NCBI GenBank assembly: GCA_016205145.1 | Contig: JACQJH010000002.1 | Coordinates: 570,001 to 602,000, forward strand | Reading direction: 5' to 3' | DNA length: 32,000 bases | From: Candidatus Iainarchaeum sp. | GTDB taxonomy: Archaea > Iainarchaeota > Iainarchaeia > Iainarchaeales > JACQJH01 | In this document: piece after piece, positions 5,417-30,796 of the stretch | Position numbering within the stretch: position 1 is the first letter of the stretch | Layout of the letters: each line of letters starts with the position of its first letter | The notes under the pieces: generated by a model | Seen by the model: the letters and a program-made list of their open reading frames with translations, nothing else | What the model was told of the DNA's origin: nothing | Database searches by the model: none | Translations under genes and position numbers: made by a program

Positions 5417-5464
5417 TGCCACCAAGTATAGTTGTTTGAAAAGAAGAATTTAAAGGTTATTCGC

Positions 5465-6115
5465 ATGCGGATCCTGGCCTTGTCGGACGTGCACCAGCGC
5501 ACTCAAAACCTGAAGGCTTTGCTGGAAAAAGCCGGAAAAGGCTTTGACGCCGTGATTGTGGCGGGAGACCTGACAAACTACGGCGAAAAAAGGCACGCGG
5601 AAGAGGTTCTGGGCCTGCTTGCCGGCCATGAAAACGTTTTTGCGGTTCCCGGAAACCTTGACACCTTGCAGGTCATTGATGCCATAACAGGAAACAAAAT
5701 GCAGTTGCACGCCAAAAAGGCGAAAATTGCGGGCGTTGCGTTCGTGGGCTTCGGCGGCGGAAAGGCATTCGAAGTGGGCGAGGTTCTTTTCACTGAAGAA
5801 GAGATTTTTGGCGCGCTTGAAAAACTCTGCAAAGGCGAAAAAAATTTTGTGCTCGTGACGCACCTGCCGCCGTTGGGAACCGCCCTTGACCTGACCGCAG
5901 GCGGAAAACACATAGGCTCTTCGGCGGTAAGGAAAATAATCGAAAAATTCCAGCCTGCCCTGCAACTGTGCGGCCACTGCCACGAGGCCGGCGGAAAAAC
6001 CGAAACAATCGGGAAAACATTGTGCGTGAACGTCGCGGCTGTCAAGGAAGGCCAGGCAACCGCGATCGAATTGCCCAAGATTGGACTGCCAAAAACCGAA
6101 AGGATAACAATCTGA
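5465..6115 (+). CDS. Calcineurin-like metallophosphoesterase
   Basis: Metallophosphoesterase motifs in order: LSDVHQ, AGDLTNYG, PGNLD, THLPP, GHCHE. Start taken at MRILALSDVH. Confidence 0.8.
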   Translation: MRILALSDVHQRTQNLKALLEKAGKGFDAVIVAGDLTNYGEKRHAEEVLGLLAGHENVFAVPGNLDTLQVIDAITGNKMQLHAKKAKIAGVAFVGFGGGKAFEVGEVLFTEEEIFGALEKLCKGEKNFVLVTHLPPLGTALDLTAGGKHIGSSAVRKIIEKFQPALQLCGHCHEAGGKTETIGKTLCVNVAAVKEGQATAIELPKIGLPKTERITI

Positions 6116-10833: not shown

Positions 10834-10988
10834 GGGCCTGTAGTCTAACGGACAGGACGGCCGGCTTCGGACCGCTGCCCTTTTCTTTTTCTTCGCAAGA
10901 AAAAGAAAAAGTGCAGGGCGCCCAAAAAGAAAGAAACGGGCAAACGGGAAGAGACCGGCTGATGGGGGTTCGAATCCCTCCGGGCCCG
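10834..10988 (+). tRNA. tRNA-Arg (anticodon TCG) with 83-nt intron at 37/38
   Basis: Acceptor GGGCCTG/CGGGCCC, D stem GTCT/GGAC, anticodon stem GCCGG/CCGGC, loop CTTCGGA, T arm GGGGG-TTCGAAT-CCCTC, discriminator G. Intron is 10871..10953. BHB: central helix CTTC/GAAG flanked by 3-nt bulges GGA and AGA, outer helix CCG/CGG. Confidence 0.85.
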
Positions 10989-11259: not shown

Positions 11260-11281
11260 TTTTTTTGGCACATTCTTGTTT

Positions 11282-13348
11282 ATGATTAAGCGCGTCCTGC
11301 TTGAAAACTGGAAAACGCATTCCAGGAGCGAACTGTTTTTCGGCCAGGGCACGAACGTGCTTGTAGGCAGGATGGGCGCCGGCAAAACGAGCGTGATGGA
11401 CGCAATCTGCTTTGCCTTGTTCGGAACATTTCCCTCATTGAACTCGCGCAGGGTTTCGCTTGACGAGGTTGTAATGAACAAGCCCAACCAGATGGACTTC
11501 TGCAGGGTTGAAATGGACTTCGATTATGCAGGAAAAAGCTTTGCCGTCGAAAGGACGATAAATTTCGGGAAAAAGGCGAATGAGGCTAAATTGTTCTGCG
11601 CGGGAAAGCTTGTTGCCGGGCCGAGCGTTTCAGACGTGACCAAAAGAATCGAGGACACGATTGAACTGGATTTCGAGCTGTTTTCAAGGGCCGTCTACTC
11701 CGAGCAGAATGAACTGGACTTTTTTTTGAGGATGTCGCCTGCGCAGAGAAAGGCGAAATTCGACGAGCTTTTGGACCTGGAAAAATACGAGAATGCGCGG
11801 GCGGCGGCTTCGACCGCCTCAAGCAGGCTCAAGGCGCAGGCCAAGGACCGGCAGAGAGTAGTGGAAAAAATCGGGCAGGACGCGACCAAGGCCGACCTTG
11901 AAAGCCTCAGGAAACGGCTTGGCGAAAAAGCCGGGTTGGAGGAAAAGTATCTGGCGGAAAAGCTTTCGAAGGAATCCGAACTCGAAAAGGCGGAAAAACT
12001 TCTAGTGGAACTTGAAAAATCCGAGGCCGAGGCAAGGCAATTGAATGAGAGCCTCATCAGGGCCGTTGCCGGCCTGGAAGAGGCGAGAAAGGGAATTGAG
12101 CGCGCGAGGAAAATGCTTGCGGGCAGGAATGCCGGGGAAATCCGGAAAATCCTTGGCGAAAAAGAGGCCGTTGCGAAAGACATCGACGAAAAGGAAATTC
12201 CGGAACTTGAATCGGAGCTGAAGAACAGGTTCAACGAATCCAATGCGGTTTTCAGGAAAAGCGAGCTGTGCAGGTCGAAGATTTCCGATCTGAAAAAAAA
12301 GTCGGAAAGGCTGGCGGGGCTTGAAGCGGTCTGCCCAACGTGTTACAGGGAACTTTCGGACGGGGACCGGAAAAGCGTCATAGGCGCAAACGAAAGCGAA
12401 AAAGCCTCGCTTGAAAAGGAGCTTGCCGCGCTCGCGGGAGAGCTTGAAAAAAGCGAGGGCCGCAAAAACAAGGCCGAGGAAAATGCGAGGGCCGCAATGA
12501 AAAGGCTTTCCCTGGAAAAAGACGGAATCCGGGAAACTAAAACCCTGCTTGCCGAAGCGCTTGAACTGGAAAAAAAGGAAGCTGACTCCAGGAGTATGGA
12601 GGAAAAGGCTTCAGAATTCCGAAAGCTTGTTTCCGGACAAAAATTTTCCCCCGAAGACCTGAAGGCCGCGAGAAAAAAGGCGGGCGACTGCGATTCCGCG
12701 CTTAAGGTGATAGGCAAGGGCATTGAAAGCAACCGCGAGCTCATGAAAACCATTGAAGCTGCAATCGAAAAGGCGGAAGCCACATTGCAGGTTGCGGAAA
12801 GCATGAAACAGGAAATAGTCTCGCTTGAAAATGCGTCGCGTGATTTGTCGGTTTTTGTCAACGCGCTTTCGTCGGCGCAGGCGGAATTGAGGCAGACAAT
12901 GATTGAAAGCGTCAACGAGGCCCTCGCGGATATCTGGCCCAGGGTTTACCCTTACCGTGATTATGTCGGGGCAAGGCTTGAAATCGTGGATGGAAACTAT
13001 GAACTGAAGGCAAGGCATTTTTCCGGCGCTTGGACAAGGATTGACGGCATACTTTCCGGGGGGGAGAGAAGCTCGGCCGCAATCTGCGTAAGAATAGCGT
13101 TCTCTCTTGTCCTCACGCAGAATCTCGGCATCATAATCCTTGACGAGCCCACGCACAACCTCGACTCAAGCGCGGTTGAGGCCCTTACAACAATGCTGAA
13201 AACGCATCTGCCCCGGCTTGTCGGGCAGGTTTTCATCATCACACATGACAAGGAAATGGAGAAAGCGGCTTCCTCATCGCTCTATCAGCTGGACCGCGAA
13301 AAAGACTGCGCTGAAGCCACAAAAATAATTTCAGCTGAAACGCAATAG
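11282..13348 (+). CDS. rad50: Rad50-type SMC ATPase (short coiled-coil arms)
   Basis: Walker A GRMGAGKTS, long heptad-rich middle, CPTC zinc hook at 12332-12343, signature LSGGERSS, Walker B IIILDEPTHNLD. ATG at 11282; the listed start 11276 is TTG. Confidence 0.85.
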   Translation: MIKRVLLENWKTHSRSELFFGQGTNVLVGRMGAGKTSVMDAICFALFGTFPSLNSRRVSLDEVVMNKPNQMDFCRVEMDFDYAGKSFAVERTINFGKKANEAKLFCAGKLVAGPSVSDVTKRIEDTIELDFELFSRAVYSEQNELDFFLRMSPAQRKAKFDELLDLEKYENARAAASTASSRLKAQAKDRQRVVEKIGQDATKADLESLRKRLGEKAGLEEKYLAEKLSKESELEKAEKLLVELEKSEAEARQLNESLIRAVAGLEEARKGIERARKMLAGRNAGEIRKILGEKEAVAKDIDEKEIPELESELKNRFNESNAVFRKSELCRSKISDLKKKSERLAGLEAVCPTCYRELSDGDRKSVIGANESEKASLEKELAALAGELEKSEGRKNKAEENARAAMKRLSLEKDGIRETKTLLAEALELEKKEADSRSMEEKASEFRKLVSGQKFSPEDLKAARKKAGDCDSALKVIGKGIESNRELMKTIEAAIEKAEATLQVAESMKQEIVSLENASRDLSVFVNALSSAQAELRQTMIESVNEALADIWPRVYPYRDYVGARLEIVDGNYELKARHFSGAWTRIDGILSGGERSSAAICVRIAFSLVLTQNLGIIILDEPTHNLDSSAVEALTTMLKTHLPRLVGQVFIITHDKEMEKAASSSLYQLDREKDCAEATKIISAETQ

Positions 13349-13377: not shown

Positions 13378-13608
13378 TCAGGCCGCAACTGCCTTGGCCG
13401 CCGCAAGCTTTTTCTCTTCCTTTGATTTTCTTGCAAGGCCCCTTGTTATGAAGCCCGCAATCGTGTTCCTGCTGACCTGCGGAAGCCCGAAATCAAGGCC
13501 GTCGATTGCCAGCTTGTTTTTCTCAAAATCGGCGCCGAAGAGGGCAGGATACTCGTTGAGCAATACCTTTGCCTTGAATTTGAGTGCCTTTGGAACAGCT
13601 TTTCCCAT
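13378..13608 (-). CDS. rps17e: Ribosomal protein S17e (eS17)
   Basis: MGKAVPKALKFKAKVLLNEYPALFGADFEKNKLAID...SRNTIAGFITR matches the eS17 N-terminal pattern. ATG at 13608. Confidence 0.8.
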   Translation of the reverse strand: MGKAVPKALKFKAKVLLNEYPALFGADFEKNKLAIDGLDFGLPQVSRNTIAGFITRGLARKSKEEKKLAAAKAVAA

Positions 13609-13619
13609 CAAAAATCGCC

Positions 13620-13826
13620 TCAGTTGATTTCAATCTTTTTTATCTGGCCGTCAGGGTATTTTCTCAAAACCGCCAGCGGAATTACCCTGCGGTTGAACTC
13701 TTCAATCGCAATGTCCTCCATCCTGAGCACTTTTGCAGGCTTGACGAGCGGCGGTGCGCCGAGCGAAAGCTGAAGGGTGCGAGCGCCGATTATTCTCGCG
13801 GTTTCAAACCGTGTAAGCTTTTCCAT
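13620..13826 (-). CDS. rpoK: DNA-directed RNA polymerase subunit K (Rpo6)
   Basis: The 68-aa C-terminal part of listed ORF 13620..13958 reads MEKLTRFETARIIGARTLQLSLGAPPLV, the RpoK/omega signature. Confidence 0.85.
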   Translation of the reverse strand: MEKLTRFETARIIGARTLQLSLGAPPLVKPAKVLRMEDIAIEEFNRRVIPLAVLRKYPDGQIKKIEIN

Positions 13827-13964: not shown

Positions 13965-15452
13965 TCAGGCGAGAATCCTGACTTTGGGCTGCGGGATTTT
14001 TTGGTTCGCAGAGAAATCCTTTGCCAGGAAAAAACCGGAGTGGCCTCCGACAAATGCCTTTGACCTGCCGAGGACCGTGCGTTCCCCCTTTTCTGATGAA
14101 AACGCCTCAAACTTTGCCAGAACGGTTTCCTGCACGCCGAGCAGGGCGCGCATTATCTGCGGGGAAAAAAATTTCGCGTTATGCCATGCAAGGTACCTTG
14201 GCACTGCATCGGCCAGCGAGATTGCGGCCTCTGAAAAGGACCTGAAAAAAACGAGTCTCGGATTGGTCGTGTGAAGGAAGTCCCCGATTTTGGATTGCCG
14301 CTTTTGTTCGGCAAACGCAAGCCTTCCGGCTTCAGCCGCCTTTTCCTGCAGGCCTGCAATCTCGGCGCCCGCAAAAGAGCCGCGCTTCAGGCAGAACCAT
14401 TCAAGCATTGCATTGTTTTCCGGCAGGATGCGGCCGGCACCCGATGCGTTAAGTGTTTTCGCGTCTTCAAGCGGCAGCATTTCCCTTTGCCCGAAAAAAA
14501 ACGGCCCGGCTTCCGGCGCGGAGAGGAAAAATTCGCGCATCCGCTTTTCCCTGCTTTCCCTGAAAGGCGCTTTTTCGTGGAATGCGCTTGCAAACGACCT
14601 GGAAAACGGCTGGAAGAAAAAGGCGTTTGACAGGAACTCGGTTTCGGCAAAAGAGCTTGGCAGGACATTGCGGTCGGAAAATGATTCCGGCCTGCAGCAG
14701 CCGCAGTTCAGGGTTTCAAAGCCGATGTTGAAAAACGACCGGTGGAAAAAAGCAGGCCACACCGAGGAAAAATCAAGCTCTGAACCCGGACCGCCGTTAT
14801 GGGCAAAGCCATTTTTTGGCAACGCAGACCTGTCATGCGGAAAACTCTCGAACGCAAACCCGTTTGAAAACAAGGCATTTTCAACAAAGGTTTCCGCCAA
14901 AAGCTGGCTTGTTTCAGGCAGGCTTTCAAGGGGCACCCTTAGAAGGCTTGAAAATGCCATTTTCCTGCAAAGCGCCTCGGCAAGACCGTCACCGGCGGAG
15001 AGAAGGCCTTGAATCGTTGCTGAAACCGGTTCGGAAAACATCGGCAGGCTTGCCTCCGGAAACTCCGTCGGCAGGCTTTCAAGGGACTCCATTGCGAATG
15101 CCCGGAAAAAAGCCCAGTTTTTTTCAAGCAAAAACTGCCGCTCCGGGCCGATTACGATTGGCTTGTAGCCAAGCGAGGATTCGATTAGAGCGGAAGCCTG
15201 CTCTAAGCCGGAAAAATCCGAAAAGCTTATTTCGTTTGAAAACTCCCTTTCCTTTACCGAAAAATTCTGGATGCTCAGGACCGACAGCAGGCTTTTGAGC
15301 AGCTCCGGCGAAAACCTTTTTGGGACAAGGATTTTCGGAAAAAACCTGAAGCGCCTGGAAAAACGCTCGTTGCCGCGCCTGAACTCGGCGAAGATTTCAC
15401 GCTTTTGGCCGGCGTACGCTGCGCCGGACAGGAAGGCACTGTCGGAAGGCAT
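13965..15452 (-). CDS. Reduced, probably catalytically inactive family B DNA polymerase-like protein
   Basis: N-terminus REIFAEFRRGNERFSRRFRFFPKILVP resembles the PolB N-terminal domain. ELDFSSVWPAFFHRSFFNIGFETLNCGC (nt 14691-14780) aligns with motif A (LDFxSLYPSIIxxHNxSPDTLNxxGC). TVLGRSKAFV sits where xVxYxDTDGxxA (motif C) should be. GFFLAKDF sits where GFFVTKKRY should be. Exonuclease and thumb regions are absent. ATG at 15452; the listed start 15470 is TTG. Confidence 0.55.
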   Translation of the reverse strand: MPSDSAFLSGAAYAGQKREIFAEFRRGNERFSRRFRFFPKILVPKRFSPELLKSLLSVLSIQNFSVKEREFSNEISFSDFSGLEQASALIESSLGYKPIVIGPERQFLLEKNWAFFRAFAMESLESLPTEFPEASLPMFSEPVSATIQGLLSAGDGLAEALCRKMAFSSLLRVPLESLPETSQLLAETFVENALFSNGFAFESFPHDRSALPKNGFAHNGGPGSELDFSSVWPAFFHRSFFNIGFETLNCGCCRPESFSDRNVLPSSFAETEFLSNAFFFQPFSRSFASAFHEKAPFRESREKRMREFFLSAPEAGPFFFGQREMLPLEDAKTLNASGAGRILPENNAMLEWFCLKRGSFAGAEIAGLQEKAAEAGRLAFAEQKRQSKIGDFLHTTNPRLVFFRSFSEAAISLADAVPRYLAWHNAKFFSPQIMRALLGVQETVLAKFEAFSSEKGERTVLGRSKAFVGGHSGFFLAKDFSANQKIPQPKVRILA

Positions 15453-15470
15453 GAAAGAGATTTGGTTCAA

Positions 15471-15675: not shown

Positions 15676-16347
15676 CTACACCAGCGTCGAAACAAACAGC
15701 ATCGTGACGCCGATTGCGGCTGTGATTGTCGTAACGATCAGCGAGTCGACGTCAAGCCGGCCCTGGAACTTCACTATCAGGAAAAAAAGCGCTGCCGAAG
15801 AAAAAATTATTCCGCCAAGAATGAGAAGGTATGAAATGAGCTTGTTCCTTGAACCGACGCCGCGCAGTTTCATTTCGTCTATGTCCTGCTGGGTGTTTGC
15901 GACGACCTCGCCGAGGTCGTTGAGCTTGTTGCGCACCTTGTCGCTCAGCTCGGTCGTCTTCATCGCGGTTTCCTCTATTTTCTGCCTGAAATTGTCGTTT
16001 TCCCTTTTCGTTTCCAGCCTGAGCTTTTCGATTTCTTCCTGCGCAGACTTCTGGACCTTTGAAAACGATTTCCCGCCCTGTTCCTCGGACTTTTCCTCGA
16101 CCGCCCTTGAAATGAAATCCTTCTGGTTTTCCAGTTCGTCGCGCACAATGCGCGAAATTTCGCCTTTCAGCAATGCAAAAGTGTCGGCCTGGCCGAGGAG
16201 CAGGAGCCTTTTCGCCTTTTCCGGTTCCACGCCAAGCTGCCTGAGCGTAGAAATTATCTTTTCCTCCGGCTCGTTCGCCTCGACCATTTCCTGGATTATG
16301 GCGATTATGCTGGCTTCCCTGTCGGTTTTCGGCTTTTTTTCGGGCAT
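15676..16347 (-). CDS. Coiled-coil protein with two C-terminal TM helices, hypothetical
   Basis: 223 aa, charged and heptad-rich in the middle, with C-terminus LISYLLILGGIIFSSAALFFLIV...LIVTTITAAIGVTMLFVSTLV. Its start overlaps the upstream gene stop (TAATG). Confidence 0.6.
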   Translation of the reverse strand: MPEKKPKTDREASIIAIIQEMVEANEPEEKIISTLRQLGVEPEKAKRLLLLGQADTFALLKGEISRIVRDELENQKDFISRAVEEKSEEQGGKSFSKVQKSAQEEIEKLRLETKRENDNFRQKIEETAMKTTELSDKVRNKLNDLGEVVANTQQDIDEMKLRGVGSRNKLISYLLILGGIIFSSAALFFLIVKFQGRLDVDSLIVTTITAAIGVTMLFVSTLV

Positions 16348-16991
16348 TACTCGGTCACGTTTATAGTGCGCTTGAACGATTCACTAACATTCTCTGCATT
16401 GAGGTTAAAAAAGATTTCGAAGGCCCCCGCCTTTTTCGGCGTGAACAAAAAATCAGTTGAAACGCAGTCGCCGGCATTGAAATCCAGAACCTGCGTTCTT
16501 TGGCCGGCTTCAACCGCGGTCTCGTCGAACGACTCCGAAATGGAAATTGTTTTCGGCAGAGCGCCCTTCCTGCAGACGTCCACGACTATTTTGGCCTTGC
16601 CGCCCACAAAAAAAAGCGATTGCTGCTGGACCTTGTAGGAAATGTTCACTGCAGGGGTTTCAAAAAAAACGTCAGTGGAAGCCTCGGCATGGAACGGCGC
16701 GCTGGCAATTATAGTGACGGTGCCCAAAAAGCCTTCCAGCAGTATTTCTTCCTTCTGCCCTGGCTCAAGCACCGCAATCTTTTTCAACAGCGTTCCATCG
16801 GAAGCCGCAACCGAAACGCCGCGGATGGAATGGCCGCTTGTGTTGGCAACCGCCACAAACTTTTCATTCCCGGCGCCGGAAACCGAAATGGAGAGGCCGG
16901 GAGTGAAAAAAATAAGGAAAACGAGTATTGCGCCGAAAATCGCCAATACCACGAGAAAAAACAATGCATTCTGCTTTTTGCCTGACAGCAT
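16347..16991 (-). CDS. N-terminally anchored extracellular beta-rich protein, hypothetical
   Basis: MLSGKKQNALFFLVVLAIFGAILVFLIFF anchor followed by a beta-sandwich-like sequence. ATG at 16991; the listed start 17006 is TTG. Confidence 0.55.
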   Translation of the reverse strand: MLSGKKQNALFFLVVLAIFGAILVFLIFFTPGLSISVSGAGNEKFVAVANTSGHSIRGVSVAASDGTLLKKIAVLEPGQKEEILLEGFLGTVTIIASAPFHAEASTDVFFETPAVNISYKVQQQSLFFVGGKAKIVVDVCRKGALPKTISISESFDETAVEAGQRTQVLDFNAGDCVSTDFLFTPKKAGAFEIFFNLNAENVSESFKRTINVTE

Positions 16992-17021
16992 CAAAACCAG
17001 AAACAATTACGCTTCTTCCCT

Positions 17022-17777
17022 TTAAAACCTTATTTTGCCCGACTGCCACTGCATTACCAGAAACTTTGCCGCCGCAACAGAGTCGGGCCTGCCGCCGGAA
17101 AGCAGAAAGCCCTTTTTCAGGGCAAACGCCTCAAGCAATGCCTCGGCATCCGTGCCCTGCAGGCCGAAACTTTTTTCAAAAAAATCCGGCCGGGATGAAA
17201 CAATAAATTCTGCAAGCTGCACTCCCGCGGTTTCGGGATCGGAAAGCTGTTCCGCGGTTTTCGCGTTCACGAGCATGAGCCTGAACTCGTCGTTTTCGTC
17301 GAACGGGATTGTGCCGGGCGAATCAAACAGCAGCAGGTTTTTCGAGACGCGGACAAGCCTTTCGCCGCGCGTGAAACCGGCTTTTTTGGAAGTGCCGGCA
17401 ACCCTCCTGCCGACCAGAATGTTGATAAGCGAACTCTTGCCGGTGTTCGGGTAGCCGACGACAGCGCACACGCACCGCTTTTTTTCAGCCAGGGCGAAAA
17501 GCCTGTTCCTGAGCAGGGAGATACCCTGCCGCTTTTTCGCGGAAACGAAAAAAGTTTCCGCTTCCTGTGACAGGAGTTTTTTCTGCGCTTCCGCATGGCG
17601 CTTCGAGGCAAAGTCGGATTTATTTATCACGAACAAAAGCCTTTTGCCGGAAGCCCGCACTTTTTCCTCGAGGTCCCTGTTCCGTGTCAGTTCCGGAAAC
17701 CTTGCATCCAAAACTTCGAGAATTATGTCTGACGATTCGACAACCTTTGAAAGCCTCGCAAAAAAGCCGCCCTTCAT
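17022..17777 (-). CDS. Circularly permuted ribosome-biogenesis GTPase (YlqF/RbgA-MJ1464 family)
   Basis: G4 NKSD precedes G1 GYPNTGKSS and G3 DSPG, the permuted order of this family. ATG at 17777. Confidence 0.8.
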   Translation of the reverse strand: MKGGFFARLSKVVESSDIILEVLDARFPELTRNRDLEEKVRASGKRLLFVINKSDFASKRHAEAQKKLLSQEAETFFVSAKKRQGISLLRNRLFALAEKKRCVCAVVGYPNTGKSSLINILVGRRVAGTSKKAGFTRGERLVRVSKNLLLFDSPGTIPFDENDEFRLMLVNAKTAEQLSDPETAGVQLAEFIVSSRPDFFEKSFGLQGTDAEALLEAFALKKGFLLSGGRPDSVAAAKFLVMQWQSGKIRF

Positions 17778-17837
17778 AAAAAAACCCGCCGGCAAAAAAC
17801 ACTCAATGCAACCATCAGCAAAATTAAGATATCCTGC

Positions 17838-18191
17838 TCAGAGTAGTTTCAGGCTCGAAGTGAACCTGTCGATTTCGGAATCCGGAGCCGGGCCGATTGC
17901 AATGCACGTCGCTTCCCCCGCTTCAATCTGCGTCCTTCCCGCATCCTTTATCAGCGCGCACGGCAAAAGCTTTTTCGCGGACTCGAACAGCTCAAGCAGT
18001 TCATTTCTGCTTCCAACTTTGAGCACGACCTTCGCCTGGCCGGAAGCCTTCCACTCCTCGACCCAGCCCGGCTTTTTTGCCGAAGTTTTTTCGACTGCCT
18101 CAAGGCTTGCGTGCGCTACTTGGGCACAAGTTTTCCCGACACCAAGTTTCAAATCTTTTCTTACAACAATTGCCTGTTTATATTCAGTCAA
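17838..18191 (-). CDS. pth2: Archaeal-type peptidyl-tRNA hydrolase (Pth2)
   Basis: 117 aa (KQAIVVRKDLKLGVGKTCAQVAHASL...DAGRTQIEAGEATCIAIGP). The TTG start at 18191 lies inside the 3' end of the upstream endonuclease gene. Confidence 0.9.
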   Translation of the reverse strand: MTEYKQAIVVRKDLKLGVGKTCAQVAHASLEAVEKTSAKKPGWVEEWKASGQAKVVLKVGSRNELLELFESAKKLLPCALIKDAGRTQIEAGEATCIAIGPAPDSEIDRFTSSLKLL

Positions 18192-19110
18192 TTTTTTCGC
18201 CCCTTTTTCTTAAATGGTCTTTGAACCGCAAATATTTCCTATCTAAACATAAGCCATTACAATTTTTATACATCCATCTGCAAAGAATGCGTGCATTATC
18301 ACCGTAAAATTCAATTTGCCACGTTCTGTCTGACGACATTTTCACATTACTTGTTCTTATTTTAATAATTTTAACCATTGTTTCCTTTAAATCTTTAATA
18401 AATTTTTCATTGCCAACAATCTTTATTTTGATTGTGTTTGGTTGGTTGAAATGAATACTTCCGTCCCCATCAAAATAACCTCTTACAAAATTAGCGAGGT
18501 ATTTTTGGGGAATTTTTGGCAGCCTTATTTTTTTTGCTTTTTTTGGCCCACACCCAAGAGCTATTAAATCGGAACACATTTTTTTGCTATGCACTGAGAA
18601 GCTCAGGTAATCTCCGTGAATTTTTATTCCATGGTTACTTTTTAGGGCTTTTTTAATTTTTTCCACGATTTTTAAGTCTTTTTTATTTAGGTGCAGGCGA
18701 AATGTTCTTTTGTCAGCGGTGACATTTCCATCGCTAAACATCCAACCCAAAACATATGCAGATTCGCGAGTCCAGACGGAAAAGAAACTTTCGTCGACTT
18801 TGTTATATCTTTTTCTAATTGGCCTCGATATTCTCAATTTGTGTGCTTTATGATACACTGAAGATTTGGTTCTTCTAGGAAATAATATGTGTATGTTGTT
18901 TTTTCCGGCGTAGTGTTCCTTCAGCATCTGAAGTTCTTTTTGTGCCCAGAAAAGACGGGGCGTTGTCAACCCAAATGCATGGAGCTTTCGCTGAATTGTG
19001 GTTTTGCTCACATTATTTTCTTTCGCTATTTCCAAGTAATTCTTGTGTTTAAGCTGCTCTTCCAAATATTCTTTTGAATTATAAAATTTCACAATAAGAT
19101 ACTGTGTCAA
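18184..19110 (-). CDS. Free-standing LAGLIDADG homing endonuclease with N-terminal HTH region
   Basis: Two LAGLIDADG motifs (YVLGWMFSDGNV and FVRGYFDGDGSI). N-terminal HTH-like YLEIAKENNVSKTTIQRKLHAFGL. Lys/Ile/Asn-rich composition. Confidence 0.85.
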   Translation of the reverse strand: MTQYLIVKFYNSKEYLEEQLKHKNYLEIAKENNVSKTTIQRKLHAFGLTTPRLFWAQKELQMLKEHYAGKNNIHILFPRRTKSSVYHKAHKLRISRPIRKRYNKVDESFFSVWTRESAYVLGWMFSDGNVTADKRTFRLHLNKKDLKIVEKIKKALKSNHGIKIHGDYLSFSVHSKKMCSDLIALGCGPKKAKKIRLPKIPQKYLANFVRGYFDGDGSIHFNQPNTIKIKIVGNEKFIKDLKETMVKIIKIRTSNVKMSSDRTWQIEFYGDNARILCRWMYKNCNGLCLDRKYLRFKDHLRKRGEKID

Positions 19111-19238
19111 TCAGTTTAAACTATGGTATAATCTTTCCTTTACCCAAAATTGAAGCCCGGGATAATAATGTCTAAGCCGCAGTTTAAAAACCTGCATTTG
19201 TGCATGGCGGAATCGTCAAACACGAAAAAAGAATGAGA
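18184..19238 (-). mobile_element. AT-rich island carrying the homing endonuclease
   Basis: Hand counts of five 60-nt lines inside give 18-47% G+C (about one third on average), against more than 50% in flanking lines. The island is bounded by pth2 and by the hairpin element starting at 19239. Confidence 0.5.
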
Positions 19239-19420
19239 TTACTCGGCCTTTCACAACAGTGATGCCCCAGAATCCAAAGATTCTGGGCACGTCGCAAAAT
19301 CCAAGATTTTGCAACGAAGGCCTTAGTTTCGGACCCGGCGTTGCGAGCAACGCGAGCCAGCGGCACTTTACGTGCCGCGCGCACCAGACGGGCGTGACGT
19401 CTCGGCGGACGAAACCGCCG
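19239..19420 (-). repeat. Composite hairpin element (longest copy of the family)
   Basis: Read on the minus strand: CGGCGG-TTTCGT-CCGCCG, agacgtcacgcccgtct, CGGCAC-gtaaa-GTGCCG, GCGTTGC-tc-GCAACGC, then an 88-nt two-hairpin module (19248-19335), then gccgagtaa. Confidence 0.7.
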
Positions 19421-19422
19421 GC

Positions 19423-19893
19423 TTAAGCCACGTTCGGCTGCGCTTCGGCTTCGGTTGACAGCTGCTGGATTACCGGCCGCATGATTTCTGAATCGTCTTC
19501 CGCGGCAGGCTGGTCTGAAGCCTGTTCTGATTCGGCTTCAGCCGGTTCCGGCTGCTCGAAGCCTGGCTGTACGCCTTTCAGGCGCAAAGTCTTTGTGATG
19601 CCATTCGAACCCCACAAATAAGTGAAAGAAGTGCCCTCGTTTTTTGTTATCCAAACGCGCCTGTTGCCCGGATGTTCGTGGCCTTTCAAAGTCAGAAGGT
19701 TGCTGAATTCAACCAGCGCCTTTGAATCGTCAAGCTTTACAAGAGTGAAAACTGACGGCGACCCGTCTACTCCCGGCAAAAGTTCGCCGAAAGCCTTGCC
19801 CTGCTCGACTTCGACCTCGTTCTCGTCAACCTTCTTGTCGAAAGGCGGGCTCCACCTGCTCTGCACGTTCCTAAGCTCAAAAATCGCTTTCAT
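19423..19893 (-). CDS. Hypothetical protein with beta-rich N-domain and acidic disordered C-terminal tail
   Basis: 156 aa with C-terminus EQPEPAEAESEQASDQPAAEDDSEIM. No motif recognised. Divergent from nurA. Confidence 0.55.
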   Translation of the reverse strand: MKAIFELRNVQSRWSPPFDKKVDENEVEVEQGKAFGELLPGVDGSPSVFTLVKLDDSKALVEFSNLLTLKGHEHPGNRRVWITKNEGTSFTYLWGSNGITKTLRLKGVQPGFEQPEPAEAESEQASDQPAAEDDSEIMRPVIQQLSTEAEAQPNVA

Positions 19894-20035
19894 GATCTCA
19901 CCAAAAAAAGTTGTAAGAAGATAAGTCGTTTCTGGTTAAAAATCTTTGTCTGGAAAAACCGGTTTGCCGGCCAAGCATTTCACGGGAAACCCGCCTGCCC
20001 AGCATTTTAAAGCAGTTTTTCCCATTGTTTTGCCG

Positions 20036-21139
20036 ATGACAATCAATTCGGTTATCGACGAGGCCGTTTCCGGCATACATGCAATGGATGCAAGGCGGAA
20101 AATCTTTTCAGAAAAGCTGCTGCTTTTGAAGGATGAAGACCTTGCCCCGCTGAACGACAGGGAATTGCTCGAAGACAGGCTCATCCTTCCGGTGCGCAAT
20201 GCGCAGGCGTTTTCGAAAAAGGTTGCGGGCGTGGATTCGGGGTTTGCGGACAAGCGCCTGTTCTCGTTCGACCTGATTCTTGTGCGCGCGGTCGCGGTCT
20301 GCTTTGCATATGACAACGGAAAGCTCGCTTCCGCGCAATATTTGCCAAATTATTTTTCTTTTCCGACGCCGTTGCTGAACAATGCCGCGCTGGACAACGA
20401 CGAGTTCCAGGTCAGCAGGTCGTTGCAGAGGCTGCTCGAGGAAGTGAGGCTTGCGAAAAGGGCGATTGCGGAATTCAGGCCGGACTATTGTTTTCTGGAT
20501 GGCAGCGTGATTCCGCAGTACGTCGAGTCTCGGCAGGACTCGCAGGTGAAGGCATTTTACCATGAAACCCTGGCGGAGTTCCAGCAGTTGTATTCCGAAG
20601 CAGAGAAAGCGGGCTGCCAGATTGTCGGCTGCGTCGAGGACAGCCGCGGCAGCCAGCTGCGCACAATCCTGCAGAAAAGCGTCCTGCCGAAAGTGCCGGT
20701 GTGCAATCCCGCTCTGCTGGATGAAACATATGATTCCGTGCTATTGGATTACCTTTTGAAAAAAGGCGAGCGGAGCTTTGCATTCAATTATTCGGCGCAC
20801 GCAAAAGAGCACCCCATCCTGAAGGATTTCGACGAGAAGTGGGCGAAGCAGGTGCACGTTTTTTACCTGAAGCCTGTTGACTTCGACAGGCCGCTGAGAG
20901 TGGAGTTCTTGTCGAACAAAAAAGGGCCTGAATTCGCAGGGCACGTTGATGAGATTGCGCAGGCCGTGCGCTTCCTCTCCGGCTTCCACAAGGAATACGC
21001 TTATCCAAGCGTCCTGATAGAAGCCGATTTCAGGGCGCGCCTGAACAACGCTGAAATCGAAACCGTTTACGAAAAAATCGTGGACAAGCTCAGCAGGCAC
21101 TTGAAACTCAGGCTGAGAAGGAACAGCAGGCCATTTTGA
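20036..21139 (+). CDS. nurA: NurA 5'-3' nuclease
   Basis: VAGVDSGF and CFLDGSVIPQ acidic motifs, suitable size, and position upstream of herA. ATG at 20036 (MTINSVIDEA); the listed start 19946 is TTG. Confidence 0.7.
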   Translation: MTINSVIDEAVSGIHAMDARRKIFSEKLLLLKDEDLAPLNDRELLEDRLILPVRNAQAFSKKVAGVDSGFADKRLFSFDLILVRAVAVCFAYDNGKLASAQYLPNYFSFPTPLLNNAALDNDEFQVSRSLQRLLEEVRLAKRAIAEFRPDYCFLDGSVIPQYVESRQDSQVKAFYHETLAEFQQLYSEAEKAGCQIVGCVEDSRGSQLRTILQKSVLPKVPVCNPALLDETYDSVLLDYLLKKGERSFAFNYSAHAKEHPILKDFDEKWAKQVHVFYLKPVDFDRPLRVEFLSNKKGPEFAGHVDEIAQAVRFLSGFHKEYAYPSVLIEADFRARLNNAEIETVYEKIVDKLSRHLKLRLRRNSRPF

Positions 21140-21437
21140 CAAAGTGATAAAAATGCCGAACAGAATACACCAAACTCAGCCGCGGAGAAGAGTGGAAAGC
21201 CTGCGGAGAAGCGCGTCAAGGTTTTCCAGAAACCTTGCCAATGTTCCGCCGGAAAAAAGGGCGGCAGTGACAAAAAGATATTGGAAAAACAAGGAAAGCG
21301 GGCAGTGAAAATGCGCGGTAAAAACAACTGGTTTCGTGCGGCCGGCATGGGTTGCGCTTTATGGCAACGAGGATTTTATTAAACGTTTCAGGGAAAAGTT
21401 GAAAGGAAAAGCAAAATCGGAAAAGAAGTGAAAAAGC

Positions 21438-22979
21438 GTGGCTGATGAAAGGGAAATCGGAACCGTGATTTCAAGCTTTGAGGGCCCGTCGCCTAACCTT
21501 GTCGATTTTGTCGTCACGCACGGAATCGTGCATCGCGGCCAGTTTGTCGAACTCGATTACAGCGAAGGAACGATGGTCTGCCTTGTCAACGACGTGATAA
21601 AGACAAACCGCTATTTCGAGCGAGCCGACTCGGTCAAGGAATTTGAAAGCTCGGGCACGAAAATGCTTGAACAGTTTCCGATCGGGGAATGGGAATACCT
21701 TCTCGCAAAGACACGGCCATTGGGGGTTTTCGCGGACGGAATGATCAAAAGGCCGAGTTATCCGCCAAGCCCAGGCACTAAAGTCAGGATTTCTGACAGG
21801 GAAAATCTCAAAAAATTCCTCGGGTTTGATTTGCAGTCCGGCCTTGAAATCGGTTCGGTGGAATACCACGACCTGCCCGTCAAGCTGAATCTGAGCGGCC
21901 TCCTCAAAAAGCACCTTGCTGTTTTGGCCATGAGCGGCAGCGGCAAGTCGTATGGTGTTTCCGTCCTGCTCGAGGAACTGCTTTCGCGCAAAAAAGAATT
22001 CGGCCGCATCGCGACAATCGTCATGGACCCGCACGGCGAATACAGCTCGTTTGCCGAGCCCGTGAAAGAAAAGGGCTTTGAGGATTTTTCCTCAGTGACC
22101 AGGCTTGTGAAAGCCAGGAACATCCAGATTGGCGTGCCGAGGCTGGACGTGAACCTGATTTCAGGAATCATTCCCGGTTTGAGCCACGCGCAAAAACGCG
22201 ACCTTGGAAGGGTTTTGTCCCAGCTCAAGCAGGAAATGCGCGATGGCCTCGGCCCATTCGACCTTGCAATGGTGCGCTTGAAAATTGCCAGGGACAGTGA
22301 AATAAAGGAAGCCACGAAAGCCGCACTCGTAGGCTGGGTTGACGGTTTGGAAGATTTGCATCTTTTCGGCAAAACCGACAATCCCGGAGTGGCAGAGCTT
22401 GCCAAACCCGGAACGCTTACAATCGTTGACCTGTCAGACATTGTTGACCTGAAAAAAAAGCAGGTCATTGTCGGCTATTTTGCGAGAAAGCTTTTCCACG
22501 AAAGGCGCGAAAAAGCCATTCCGCCGTTTTTGTTCATTCTGGAAGAAGCGCACCAATTCTGTCCGGAAAAGGCTTCGGAGGAAAAGGCTGTAGCGCGCGG
22601 CATCATCCGAACCATTGCACGCGAAGGAAGGAAATTCGGCGCTTCGCTGTGCCTGATTTCGCAGAGGCCCGTGCAATTGGACACTACCACGCTGTCGCAG
22701 TGCAACACTCACATAATTTTGCGCATAACCAACCCATATGATTTGAAGCACATCGGCGAAACCTCCGAGGGCATCGACGCCAGAACCCAGTCAATGATTT
22801 CCTCTCTCAGGGTCGGTGAAGGGATTATCGTCGGCGAAGCAGTCAGCTTTCCGGTTTTCTTCAAGTTCCGGAAACGCAGGAGCGCGCCAAGCCGGCACGA
22901 GTTTTCATTGGAGCAGGCCGCAATCGACTTTGAAAACAGCGAAGGCAAAAACCGCGAGGAAGCGGAAAGCTTTTTGTAA
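21438..22979 (+). CDS. herA: HerA bipolar DNA helicase / FtsK-HerA superfamily ATPase
   Basis: N-terminal barrel EIGTVISSFEGPSPNLVDFVV, Walker A AMSGSGKSYGVS, Walker B LFILEEAHQF, and arginine-finger region LISQRP. GTG start at 21438. Confidence 0.9.
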   Translation: MADEREIGTVISSFEGPSPNLVDFVVTHGIVHRGQFVELDYSEGTMVCLVNDVIKTNRYFERADSVKEFESSGTKMLEQFPIGEWEYLLAKTRPLGVFADGMIKRPSYPPSPGTKVRISDRENLKKFLGFDLQSGLEIGSVEYHDLPVKLNLSGLLKKHLAVLAMSGSGKSYGVSVLLEELLSRKKEFGRIATIVMDPHGEYSSFAEPVKEKGFEDFSSVTRLVKARNIQIGVPRLDVNLISGIIPGLSHAQKRDLGRVLSQLKQEMRDGLGPFDLAMVRLKIARDSEIKEATKAALVGWVDGLEDLHLFGKTDNPGVAELAKPGTLTIVDLSDIVDLKKKQVIVGYFARKLFHERREKAIPPFLFILEEAHQFCPEKASEEKAVARGIIRTIAREGRKFGASLCLISQRPVQLDTTTLSQCNTHIILRITNPYDLKHIGETSEGIDARTQSMISSLRVGEGIIVGEAVSFPVFFKFRKRRSAPSRHEFSLEQAAIDFENSEGKNREEAESFL

Positions 22980-26157: not shown

Positions 26158-26224
26158 GCAATGCAAATTCCAGGAATTTGCCTGATTCTAGCGGCCGAAA
26201 AAAATTGACGGAAGTGGTTTGCAA

Positions 26225-27631
26225 ATGGCAAAAACTTACATAAACAACGTAAAGTACATGATAAAGGCCAAGTTTGAGATAAACGGCGTCGTGGACAAGC
26301 ATGACATCATCGGCGCGGTTTTCGGCCAGTCCGAAGGCCTTATCGGCGACGACCTCGATTTGAGGGAACTGCAGAAGAACGGCAAAATCGGCAGGATTGA
26401 AATCAACAGCACCACTGTTGAAGGAAAAACCGCCGGCGAACTTTTTGTTCCAAGCTCGATGGACATGGTCAAGACAAGCATCCTTGCGGCCGCAATTGAA
26501 ACTGTTGAAAAGGTCGGCCCCTGGGAGTCGAAATTCGAGATTCTCACGATTGACGACACTCGCAGCGCGAAACGCAAGGAAATAATCGAAAGGTCGAAGG
26601 AACTGCTGAAAAAGCTGAACATGACATTACCGCAGGCGCAGGAGCTCGCGGAAGAGATAAAGGAGGACGTCTGGGCAGCCGACATAGTTTCTTACGGCAC
26701 GGACAACCTTTCAGCCGGCCCCGACATTGACAGTTCAAACGAAATAATCCTGGTCGAAGGCAGGGCGGATGTCCTGAATCTTTTGCGCAACCAGGTGAGA
26801 AACGTGATTGCGGTCGAAGGCTCCACAGTAAGCCCGACAATAATAGAGCTGTGCTCGAAAAAAAGCATCACGGTTTTCTTTGACGGCGACCGGGGCGGGC
26901 TGTTGAACCTGAGAAGGCTCCAGCAGTCGGCGAAAGTCGACTTTGTCGCAAAGGCGCCGGAAGGCAAGGAAGTCGAAGAGCTCACGAGAAAGGAAATCGT
27001 CATGGCGCTCCGCAAAAAAATTCCGATAAGCGAAATGAACCTCGGTCCAGAGCAGCCTTCAACAGGCTTTGAGGAAAGGTCCTTTGACAGGCCAATGCGC
27101 TCCGACATGCATGGCGGCATGAGAAGCAGGGGTCCTGGAAGGTTTTCACCGCGCCCACAGCACGGGCCGAGAACAGGCGGCTTCGGCGGAAGACCTCCGT
27201 TTGAGCCGAGGCAGGGCTTCGGCGGAAGGCCAAGCAGGTTTTCCTCACGCCCACAGAGAGGCGGCGGAAGGCCGGGCGCGCCGAGAATGAGAATGTCTTT
27301 CTCGCGCACAACCGAAGCGCCCGAGAAAAGGGAAATACCGGCAAACCTGCCGCCGGAAGCGGCGGAATTCTCCGATGCAATGCGCGAAATAAAGGATTCC
27401 TTGAAGGCAAGGCTCCTGGACTCGCAGAAAAACGCGATCGCGGAAGTGCCTGTAAGGGATTTGCTGAAGACAATCAAATCCGAAAAGGGCATTGACACGG
27501 TCATTTTCGACGGTGTCGTGACCAAAAGGCTTGTTGACGAGGCAGTGAAAAGCGGGGTCAAAACCATTGTCGGCGTTAAAAAGGGCAGCGTTCCGGAAAC
27601 ACCGGAAATCAAAATCATAACGCTGTCTTAA
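26225..27631 (+). CDS. dnaG: Archaeal DnaG (Toprim; exosome-associated primase homologue) with RG-rich insert
   Basis: N-terminus YMIKAKFEINGVVDKHDIIGAVFGQSEGLIGDDLDLRELQKNGKIGRIEI is typical of archaeal DnaG. Toprim region EIILVEGRADVLNL...FFDGDRGG. RG/P-rich low-complexity stretch at about nt 27085-27300. Confidence 0.85.
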   Translation: MAKTYINNVKYMIKAKFEINGVVDKHDIIGAVFGQSEGLIGDDLDLRELQKNGKIGRIEINSTTVEGKTAGELFVPSSMDMVKTSILAAAIETVEKVGPWESKFEILTIDDTRSAKRKEIIERSKELLKKLNMTLPQAQELAEEIKEDVWAADIVSYGTDNLSAGPDIDSSNEIILVEGRADVLNLLRNQVRNVIAVEGSTVSPTIIELCSKKSITVFFDGDRGGLLNLRRLQQSAKVDFVAKAPEGKEVEELTRKEIVMALRKKIPISEMNLGPEQPSTGFEERSFDRPMRSDMHGGMRSRGPGRFSPRPQHGPRTGGFGGRPPFEPRQGFGGRPSRFSSRPQRGGGRPGAPRMRMSFSRTTEAPEKREIPANLPPEAAEFSDAMREIKDSLKARLLDSQKNAIAEVPVRDLLKTIKSEKGIDTVIFDGVVTKRLVDEAVKSGVKTIVGVKKGSVPETPEIKIITLS

Positions 27632-30632: not shown

Positions 30633-30686
30633 GCCCGATGAAGCGAAGCGAATCGGGCGTCGGACTCGGCGGACGAAATCGCCGAG
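30633..30686 (+). repeat. Two GC hairpins forming the 5' flank of tRNA-Gly(TCC)
   Basis: GCCCGAT-gaagcgaagcga-ATCGGGC at 30633-30658 and CTCGGCG-gacgaaat-CGCCGAG at 30665-30686. The second is the reverse-orientation version of the TTTCGT-loop hairpin, and its last base is tRNA position 1. Confidence 0.65.
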
Positions 30687-30796
30687 CGCCTGTAGCGTAG
30701 TGGTAGCGTTCGACCCTTCCAAAACTTTTTTAGAAAAAAAGTTTGCAAAAAAGTCGAGGTGAGGTCGCGGCCCGGGTTCGACTCCCGGCGGGCGCA
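30686..30796 (+). tRNA. tRNA-Gly (anticodon TCC) with 40-nt intron at 37/38
   Basis: Acceptor GCGCCTG/CGGGCGC, D stem GCGT/GCGT (wobbles), anticodon stem CGACC/GGTCG, spliced loop CTTCCAA, T arm CCGGG-TTCGACT-CCCGG, discriminator A. Intron is 30722..30761, with central helix CTTC/GAGG and 3' bulge TGA. The 5' side is less regular, so this is a relaxed BHB. Confidence 0.8.

Follow-up and report, generated by a model that had tools for sequence, protein, structure and literature searches.

The DNA analysed here (the window) is a stretch of 32,000 nucleotides from Candidatus Iainarchaeum sp. (contig JACQJH010000002.1, positions 570,001 to 602,000). Beside the genes for RpoK, ribosomal protein S17e and Rad50 it carries, on the minus strand, an uninterrupted open reading frame (ORF) that encodes 501 amino acids (aa) when counted from a TTG codon at 15470. 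An ATG at 15452, which gives 495 aa, is the probable true start because it coincides with the N termini of relatives; residue numbers in this text refer to the 501-aa product. An earlier reading made from the letters of the DNA (the sequence-only reading) had taken this product for a reduced, catalytically degenerate homologue of the family B DNA polymerases (PolBs). Homology, motif losses and domain losses support that core claim: the protein is a genuine, extremely divergent PolB homologue of about half the normal size.

A half-size homologue of family B DNA polymerases

A profile built from nine sequences of the family matched the P. calidifontis PolB (PDB entry 5mdn_A) with E = 6.8e-6 in two colinear stretches, which correspond to the motif A region and to the region from motif B to motif C. 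E. coli Pol II and Pol epsilon came next (E ~ 0.6), and a profile of 71 family sequences gave the same picture. Using hhalign, we found that the family aligns with 13 fragments of PolB polymerase domains at E = 1.4e-4 and with 30 diverse full-length PolBs at E = 4.6e-8 (94.9% probability over 375 columns). The full-length sequences were drawn from metagenome loci, since a homologue search seeded with PolB fragments gave only proteins of at most 326 aa. When the AlphaFold2 (AF2) model of the window protein, with a predicted local distance difference test score (pLDDT) of 75 and a predicted template modelling score (pTM) of 0.59, was compared with the PDB using Foldseek, the top 50 matches were exclusively B-family polymerases (best E = 1.6e-8), and 113 matches fell below 1e-3. 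Among the top 50 matches to viral models, those that carry a name are all DNA polymerases, almost all of the B family. In addition, the motif A region of one relative (P0002) matched the phage model PHROG 262, 'DNA polymerase' (E = 4.4e-4).

The PolB resemblance on which the sequence-only reading was built is thus borne out by the profile, hhalign and Foldseek comparisons, including the check by AlphaFold model and Foldseek that it had suggested. As to the profile check suggested alongside, profile and hhalign comparisons with PolBs were significant; the consensus sequences of the family had no DNA_pol_B match in Pfam. A resemblance due to chance, or to a coincidence at the level of the fold, would fit the finding that the single window protein has no match in Pfam, NCBIfam or the PDB even at E <= 10. 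However, four independent methods agree on PolB with colinear motif registers, and this explanation is in effect refuted.

The gene belongs to a family that is characteristic of one archaeal lineage. An indexed similarity search returned eight full-length relatives at 30–38% identity and one at 92%, all from metagenome-assembled genomes (MAGs) of Diapherotrites and either unnamed or annotated as 'hypothetical protein'. An exhaustive HMMER search extended the family to at least 152 representative clusters (50% identity level), the full-length members of which are nearly all ~490–530 aa long, with none of normal PolB size. Pfam and NCBIfam contain no model for it. In a genome survey, done as a pattern scan from a motif-selected subset of members with one genome per species, we found the gene in 74 genomes, at a single locus in each; almost all of these are labelled Candidatus Iainarchaeum or Diapherotrites (DPANN). 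Two loci, L009 (JAFCBY010000044.1, labelled Candidatus Falkowbacteria) and L069 (labelled Thaumarchaeota), show the HerA–family gene–RpoK–S17e–Rad50 synteny typical of Iainarchaeota, and their contigs are therefore probably mis-binned or mislabelled.

Half the normal length and degenerate motifs might suggest a decaying pseudogene, or the remnant of a PolB from a mobile element or virus, and LAGLIDADG elements and an inversion lie nearby. However, the gene has the intact frame that had been read from the letters (every peptide string quoted in that reading occurs in the product), and comparison with the gene of the 92%-identical relative (locus L079) revealed 90.5% nucleotide identity, the same length and none of the frameshifts by which the sequence-only reading would have recognized a pseudogene. 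Synonymous divergence (dS) between the two genes is 0.36 and nonsynonymous divergence (dN) 0.038, a dN/dS of 0.106; the gene is under strong purifying selection. Given this ratio and the equal length, the pseudogene objection fails. Further points against decay or a mobile origin are the uniform length of ~500 aa across at least 152 clusters, and the single copy at a conserved chromosomal position in 74 genomes. Models of defence systems had no match in the family, phage models had only that of P0002 to PHROG 262, and the GC content of the gene is similar to that of its surroundings. Both forms of this explanation are effectively refuted.

Loss of domains and catalytic residues

In the hhalign register, family residues ~165–255 lie opposite the post-exonuclease helices and motif A of PolBs (LDFSS...NIGFET against LDFxSMYP...NxxPDT), residues 360–436 opposite the fingers (WFC.KKESFLS.E against KFRK.PPGFYKE.L) and residues 437–501 opposite the C-terminal palm, where YGDTDSLFV faces TVLG-RSKAFV. 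Residues 256–359 have nothing opposite them in PolBs and thus form an insertion. Because family residue ~165 aligns with PolB position ~355, about 190 residues, the size of an exonuclease domain, are missing upstream of the palm; a single domain of ~120 aa precedes the palm entry, with no significant match to the exonuclease region. Of the 800 PolB columns, the alignment reaches only as far as ~620; the protein thus ends short of the KxY strand and has no thumb at all. Both absences, of the exonuclease domain and of the thumb, had been proposed from the letters and hold here. The string GFFLAKDF, which had been read as KxY-like, is actually the helix directly following the motif C hairpin.

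The N-terminal domain is modelled by AF2 in the order four strands, helix, two strands, helix, helix, and carries near-invariant FFP and PERQFLL..W..F motifs. Its size, its order of strands and helices and the positions of FFP and PERQFLL..W fit the PolB N-terminal domain. A sub-profile of the N-terminal 128 residues alone had no significant match in the PDB, and its comparison with the profile of the 30 full-length PolBs was not significant (E = 0.43). The alignment to the Exo II region that this comparison offered (NWSYFD against N..FD) is at chance level, and we rejected it. Judging from the model, this ~120-aa domain is probably the PolB N-terminal domain, an assignment that is unproven. 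Size and secondary-structure order make the N-terminal domain of the sequence-only reading plausible, whereas the motif equivalences proposed there (FFP with F.PY, PERQFLL with RYLID) have no statistical support. In the linker that follows the domain, AF2 gives residues 121–134 a pLDDT below 50.

To describe conservation we used two sets of 71 members, one unfiltered and one derived from the genome survey; the first three cysteines discussed below belonged to the filter of the latter. The window protein retains D233, the equivalent of the motif A aspartate. This position is aspartate in 56 of the 71 unfiltered members (N, S, E, R or Y otherwise) and in 51 of the 71 genome-derived ones, and the SLYPS of motif A (DxxSLYPS) is not conserved. 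At the position of motif B (K...N..YG), residues 411–427, no K, N or YG is conserved family-wide; at that of motif C no acidic residue is conserved family-wide, and none occurs in the TVLGRSKAFVG of the window protein. An unrecognizable motif B and the loss of the motif C aspartate pair, first noted for the window protein, thus characterize the whole family. Near-invariant columns make up 15% of the cysteine and insertion module, 11% of the N-terminal domain and 11% of the motif A region, but 2% of the C-terminal palm and 0% of the fingers, which makes the insertion the most conserved part of the family and the fingers the least. Selection has left the polymerase active site.

These data bear on whether the protein could be an active polymerase or primase whose active site departs from the canonical one; this has been proposed for PolB2 and shown for piPolB, which has an incomplete motif C. 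Such an enzyme would explain why D233 is kept in the window protein and most unfiltered members and why position 252 is acidic (E/D) in 69 of 71 members, and PolBs without one of the motif C aspartates have been noted as active in the literature (PMC7544198). We nevertheless consider an active enzyme very unlikely. The family has no conserved motif C acid, and it is missing motif B, the thumb and the primer-binding KxY strand; 20–28% of members have N, Q, K, S, R, Y or T in place of D233; and conservation is lowest in the fingers and the C-terminal palm.

A cysteine-bracketed insertion in the palm

Four cysteines, C256, C258, C259 and C360, are invariant in the unfiltered set (71 of 71), and in the genome-derived set C360, W358, G322 and P323 are each found in all 71 members. 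The first three follow directly on the extension of motif A and the fourth stands at the entry to the fingers helix, so that together they bracket the insertion of ~100 aa between motif A and the fingers. This best-conserved feature of the family had gone unnoticed in the sequence-only reading. The invariance of the cysteines and their position at the two ends of the insertion match the expectation for a domain stapled by a metal at its base, and we predict such a staple, with zinc (Zn) or an iron–sulfur (Fe–S) cluster as the metal.

The insertion itself resembles a module of the replication factor GINS. A sub-model of the insertion (pLDDT 90.9) found the C-terminal domain of Gins51 as its first Foldseek match (5ghr_D, probability 0.93, template modelling score (TMt) 0.68, E = 0.32), followed by the Sso, human and Tko GINS and by complexes of Cdc45, MCM and GINS (CMG); about 20 of the top 50 matches were GINS, all at E >= 0.3. 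In profile searches, the sole replication-related match of the insertion was Psf2 (E = 1), over the pattern GPF..G....PL..A..L. The Pfam model PSF2_N was matched by 6 of 34 members (best E = 0.0012) and by the family consensus (E = 0.028, 14.9 bits against a cutoff of 27), and Gins51_C by one member (E = 0.009). Because these sub-threshold signals, from three independent methods, agree, the core of the insertion is likely a GINS B-domain-like module. This core consists of a beta-hairpin, a helix and a strand, and its putative counterparts are the B-domains at the C terminus of Gins51 and the N terminus of Psf2; unlike in GINS, the family protein has no A-domain, and the module lies inside a polymerase palm rather than at the terminus of a GINS subunit. 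GINS B-domains are protein-docking modules, which in archaea bind GAN/RecJ and the N terminus of the PolD subunit DP1 (PMC9023282).

A second parallel concerns the cysteines. The matches of the family profile to Pol epsilon are marginal (E = 0.17–0.66), and their alignment places C360 in register with C747 of human Pol epsilon (ICQRENSF against WFC.KKESF), a residue that we take to be a CysX ligand. In Pol epsilon, as in the family, three cysteines past the motif A extension and a fourth at the fingers clamp a domain of ~90–100 aa at the same insertion point of the palm (CysX and P-domain; PMC6582351, PMC9581978). This combination of P-domain and CysX occurs in Pol epsilon orthologues and not in other PolBs (Kazlauskas et al., PMC7544198). 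By contrast with the family, Pol epsilon is an active, full-size enzyme; its cysteines are spaced Cx2Cx8C rather than CxCC; and its CysX site binds [4Fe-4S], whereas the four-cysteine site of the family is a putative metal site with Zn or Fe–S as candidates. We also considered the insertion as a homologue of the P-domain and rejected this, as its sub-profile had no Pol epsilon match and none appeared in the Foldseek top 50. What remains with Pol epsilon is a positional parallel of the cysteine sites alone.

On balance, we favour the explanation that the protein is a non-catalytic, PolB-derived adaptor or scaffold with a metal-stapled, GINS-B-like docking module. The exonuclease domain, the thumb and the active site are gone; the dead polymerase body that is left, made up of the palm core, the fingers helices and a probable N-terminal domain, would act as a rigid frame. 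The functional centre under selection would be the four-cysteine metal site (Zn or Fe–S) tying together the ends of the insertion, and the stapled B-like module would offer a docking surface to a partner in replication or repair. Candidates for this partner are a nuclease of the RecJ/GAN/Cdc45 type and the N terminus of DP1, which GINS B-domains bind elsewhere, as well as the neighbouring end-resection proteins HerA, NurA and Rad50. There is precedent both for non-catalytic PolB modules (PMC7544198) and for docking through GINS B-domains (PMC9023282).

Several observations weigh against this adaptor model, which is built on sequence and predicted structures. The aspartate of motif A persists in most members, the window protein among them, and the assignment of the N-terminal domain lacks statistical support. 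None of the GINS signals reaches its threshold of significance (E >= 0.3 in Foldseek; 14.9 bits against 27 in Pfam). The four-cysteine site was recognized in the sequence, and spatial clustering of the four residues is a prediction. Finally, in a region that is syntenic throughout, adjacency to HerA is weak evidence for a partner, and both the window and a divergent subgroup depart from it.

Other catalytically degenerate PolBs have been described. The inactivated archaeal PolB2 (Dpo2) has disrupted catalytic motifs and is conserved within lineages (Rogozin 2008; Makarova 2014, PMC4104785; Kazlauskas 2020, PMC7544198); like the family, it is a PolB homologue with degenerate catalysis and a presumed role in replication or repair without bulk synthesis. 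However, PolB2 is near full length, with degenerate exonuclease and polymerase domains, a thumb and one motif C aspartate, whereas the family protein is ~500 aa long, has neither exonuclease domain nor thumb and no motif C acid, and carries an insertion clamped by four cysteines. PolB2 is also linked to arCOG07300 and an inactivated RadA (PMC4104785), whereas the family gene is found with NurA, HerA, rpoK, S17e and Rad50. The C-terminal inactive PolB module of Pol epsilon (PolEpsilonC), which binds CMG and has a structural role (PMC7544198), likewise combines a PolB fold with absent catalysis, but it is a much larger module, joined to an active polymerase, and is bound by the B-subunit through CysA and CysB; the likeness is limited to the general PolB fold. 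In the PolB surveys (PMC7544198, PMC4104785) and the literature searched, we found no PolB derivative of ~500 aa without exonuclease domain and thumb, and no PolB with a GINS-like insertion clamped by four cysteines.

A bolder form of the adaptor model is that the protein is a free-standing PolB scaffold with a GINS B-domain stapled by a metal cluster, and would thus be an archaeal counterpart of two hallmarks of Pol epsilon, namely the four-cysteine cluster beneath the insertion in the palm and an inactive PolB module docked on the CMG/GINS hub, acting as an adaptor at the replisome or in fork repair that had so far gone unrecognized. We regard this form as improbable; if the four-cysteine site of the family binds Fe–S, it would be the first site of the CysX kind in a protein other than the orthologues of Pol epsilon.

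The described inactivated PolBs of archaea all keep the full domain set, and this family shows extreme stripping under strong selection, with selection shifted to an inserted domain clamped by four cysteines at the CysX/P-domain site of Pol epsilon. A conserved 'hypothetical' core gene of Iainarchaeota thereby gains an identity and becomes a candidate component of DPANN replication or repair. It also provides a small, tractable protein in which to ask what a metal site at a palm insertion does when catalysis is gone.

Gene neighbourhood and other features of the window

In most of the 74 genomes the gene order is NurA, HerA, family gene, rpoK, S17e and a convergent Rad50. In the window (Table 1), a block at ~15676–22979 that comprises two unknown ORFs, a GTPase, PTH2, NurA and HerA is inverted with respect to the common Iainarchaeota order (as in loci L001, L004, L030 and others), and NurA and HerA therefore lie 4.5–7.5 kb away on the other strand; rpoK, S17e and Rad50 remain beside the family gene despite this inversion. 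Locus L079, that of the 92%-identical relative, appears to share the inverted arrangement. In a divergent subgroup, the family gene stands beside Alba, a cysteine desulfurase and L44e, with HerA 3–5 kb away. A region of ~20 kb, including PTH2, the GTPase and the CCA enzyme, is wholly syntenic in the lineage, and the linkage to HerA is for this reason only suggestive. The same applies to rpoK, whose adjacency had been used in the sequence-only reading to argue for a structural or regulatory role: rpoK is indeed a conserved neighbour, but as part of a long syntenic block it says little by itself.

One explanation that starts from these neighbours is that the protein is a dedicated accessory of double-strand-break resection by HerA–NurA and Rad50, with the task of binding DNA ends or of linking HerA with Rad50. 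The family gene occupies the place that Mre11 has in the classical archaeal herA–mre11–rad50–nurA operons, the order with NurA and HerA on one side and rpoK, S17e and the convergent Rad50 on the other recurs in most of the 74 genomes, and rearranged loci still hold HerA within 3–6 kb. No Mre11 was called next to Rad50 in the window or in the annotated relatives (L001, L002 and L004), nor is there an Mre11-type gene among the Pfam-annotated neighbours; the sole nearby metallophosphoesterase, of 227 aa, is YfcE-like. However, the linkage is unspecific in a region that is syntenic throughout, the gaps between HerA and the family gene are ~90–120 bp, the adjacency is broken in the window, the protein has no nuclease domain and Mre11 could be encoded elsewhere. 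We therefore hold a dedicated resection accessory to be doubtful, and prefer the adaptor model, in which these proteins are candidate partners among others.

Neither the window nor the flanks that were fetched contain a gene for PolB or PolD. A PolB pattern screen of the fetched Iainarchaeota loci was also negative, and no RadA-like gene occurs in the annotated loci.

Table 1. Positions of the family gene, its segments, neighbouring genes and other features in the window
Feature	Position	Strand	Basis or remark
Whole ORF	13965..15470	-	stop codon 13965-13967
N-terminal alpha/beta domain, residues 8-120	15111..15449	-	AF2 secondary structure, Foldseek span
Low-confidence linker, residues 121-148	15027..15110	-	site of the exonuclease domain in normal PolBs
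Helical segment, residues 149-203	14862..15026	-	aligns to post-exonuclease / palm-entry helices of PolB
Motif A region, residues 229-255, ELDFSS...NIGFETLN	14706..14786	-	profile and hhalign
Cysteine triad CGCC, C256/C258/C259	14694..14705	-	conservation
Insertion of ~100 aa, residues 260-359	14394..14693	-	hhalign gap, conservation, sub-model pLDDT
Core of insertion, likely GINS B-domain-like, residues 314-350	14421..14531	-	GPF..G....PL.DA..L
Fourth cysteine C360, in W.C.K.ES	14391..14393	-	entry to fingers helix
Fingers-equivalent helices, residues 361-436	14163..14390	-	motif B position, residues 411-427
C-terminal palm segment, residues 437-501	13968..14162	-	motif C position TVLGRSKAFVG at 14046-14078
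rpoK (Rpb6-like, 68 aa)	13620..13826	-	138 bp downstream, conserved neighbour
Ribosomal protein S17e	13378..13611	-	conserved neighbour
Rad50 with zinc hook	11276..13348	+	convergent, conserved neighbour
NurA nuclease	19946..21139	+	directly upstream with HerA in most relatives
HerA helicase	21438..22979	+	immediately upstream of the family gene in most relatives
YfcE-like metallophosphoesterase	5432..6115		227 aa
Rfam tRNA match, 155 nt	10834..10988	+	71-position model
Rfam tRNA match, 111 nt	30686..30796	+	71-position model
ORF of 223 aa	15676..16347	-	no Pfam/NCBIfam match
ORF of 219 aa	16347..17006	-	no Pfam/NCBIfam match
LAGLIDADG ORF, 308 aa	18184..19110	-	low-GC stretch 18001-19000 (GC 0.38)
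DnaG-type primase	26219..27631	+	NCBIfam equivalog, E = 1.7e-136

The HerA of some relatives is longer by ~320 aa (851 aa in L002 and L003; 834–857 aa in L042, L043 and L048), and a faint LAGLIDADG match in the HerA of L002 and L003 suggests an intein inside it. Within the window, the LAGLIDADG ORF has NCBIfam matches only to the intein portions of the DP2 and IF-2 models; relatives have at this position a cysteine desulfurase and NifU (which in L004 contains a LAGLIDADG intein), neither of which is evident in the window. The ORF may encode a homing endonuclease that is either free-standing or degenerate.

The window as a whole is archaeal, and its close relatives are Iainarchaeota MAGs. The ORFs of 223 and 219 aa are adjacent, are both conserved and syntenic in several Iainarchaeota loci and have hydrophobic-looking termini, and they may encode membrane proteins. 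The two Rfam tRNA matches far exceed the length of the model, were both missed by ARAGORN and are probably intron-containing archaeal tRNAs. An archaeal DnaG-type primase is encoded ~11 kb from the PolB-like gene.

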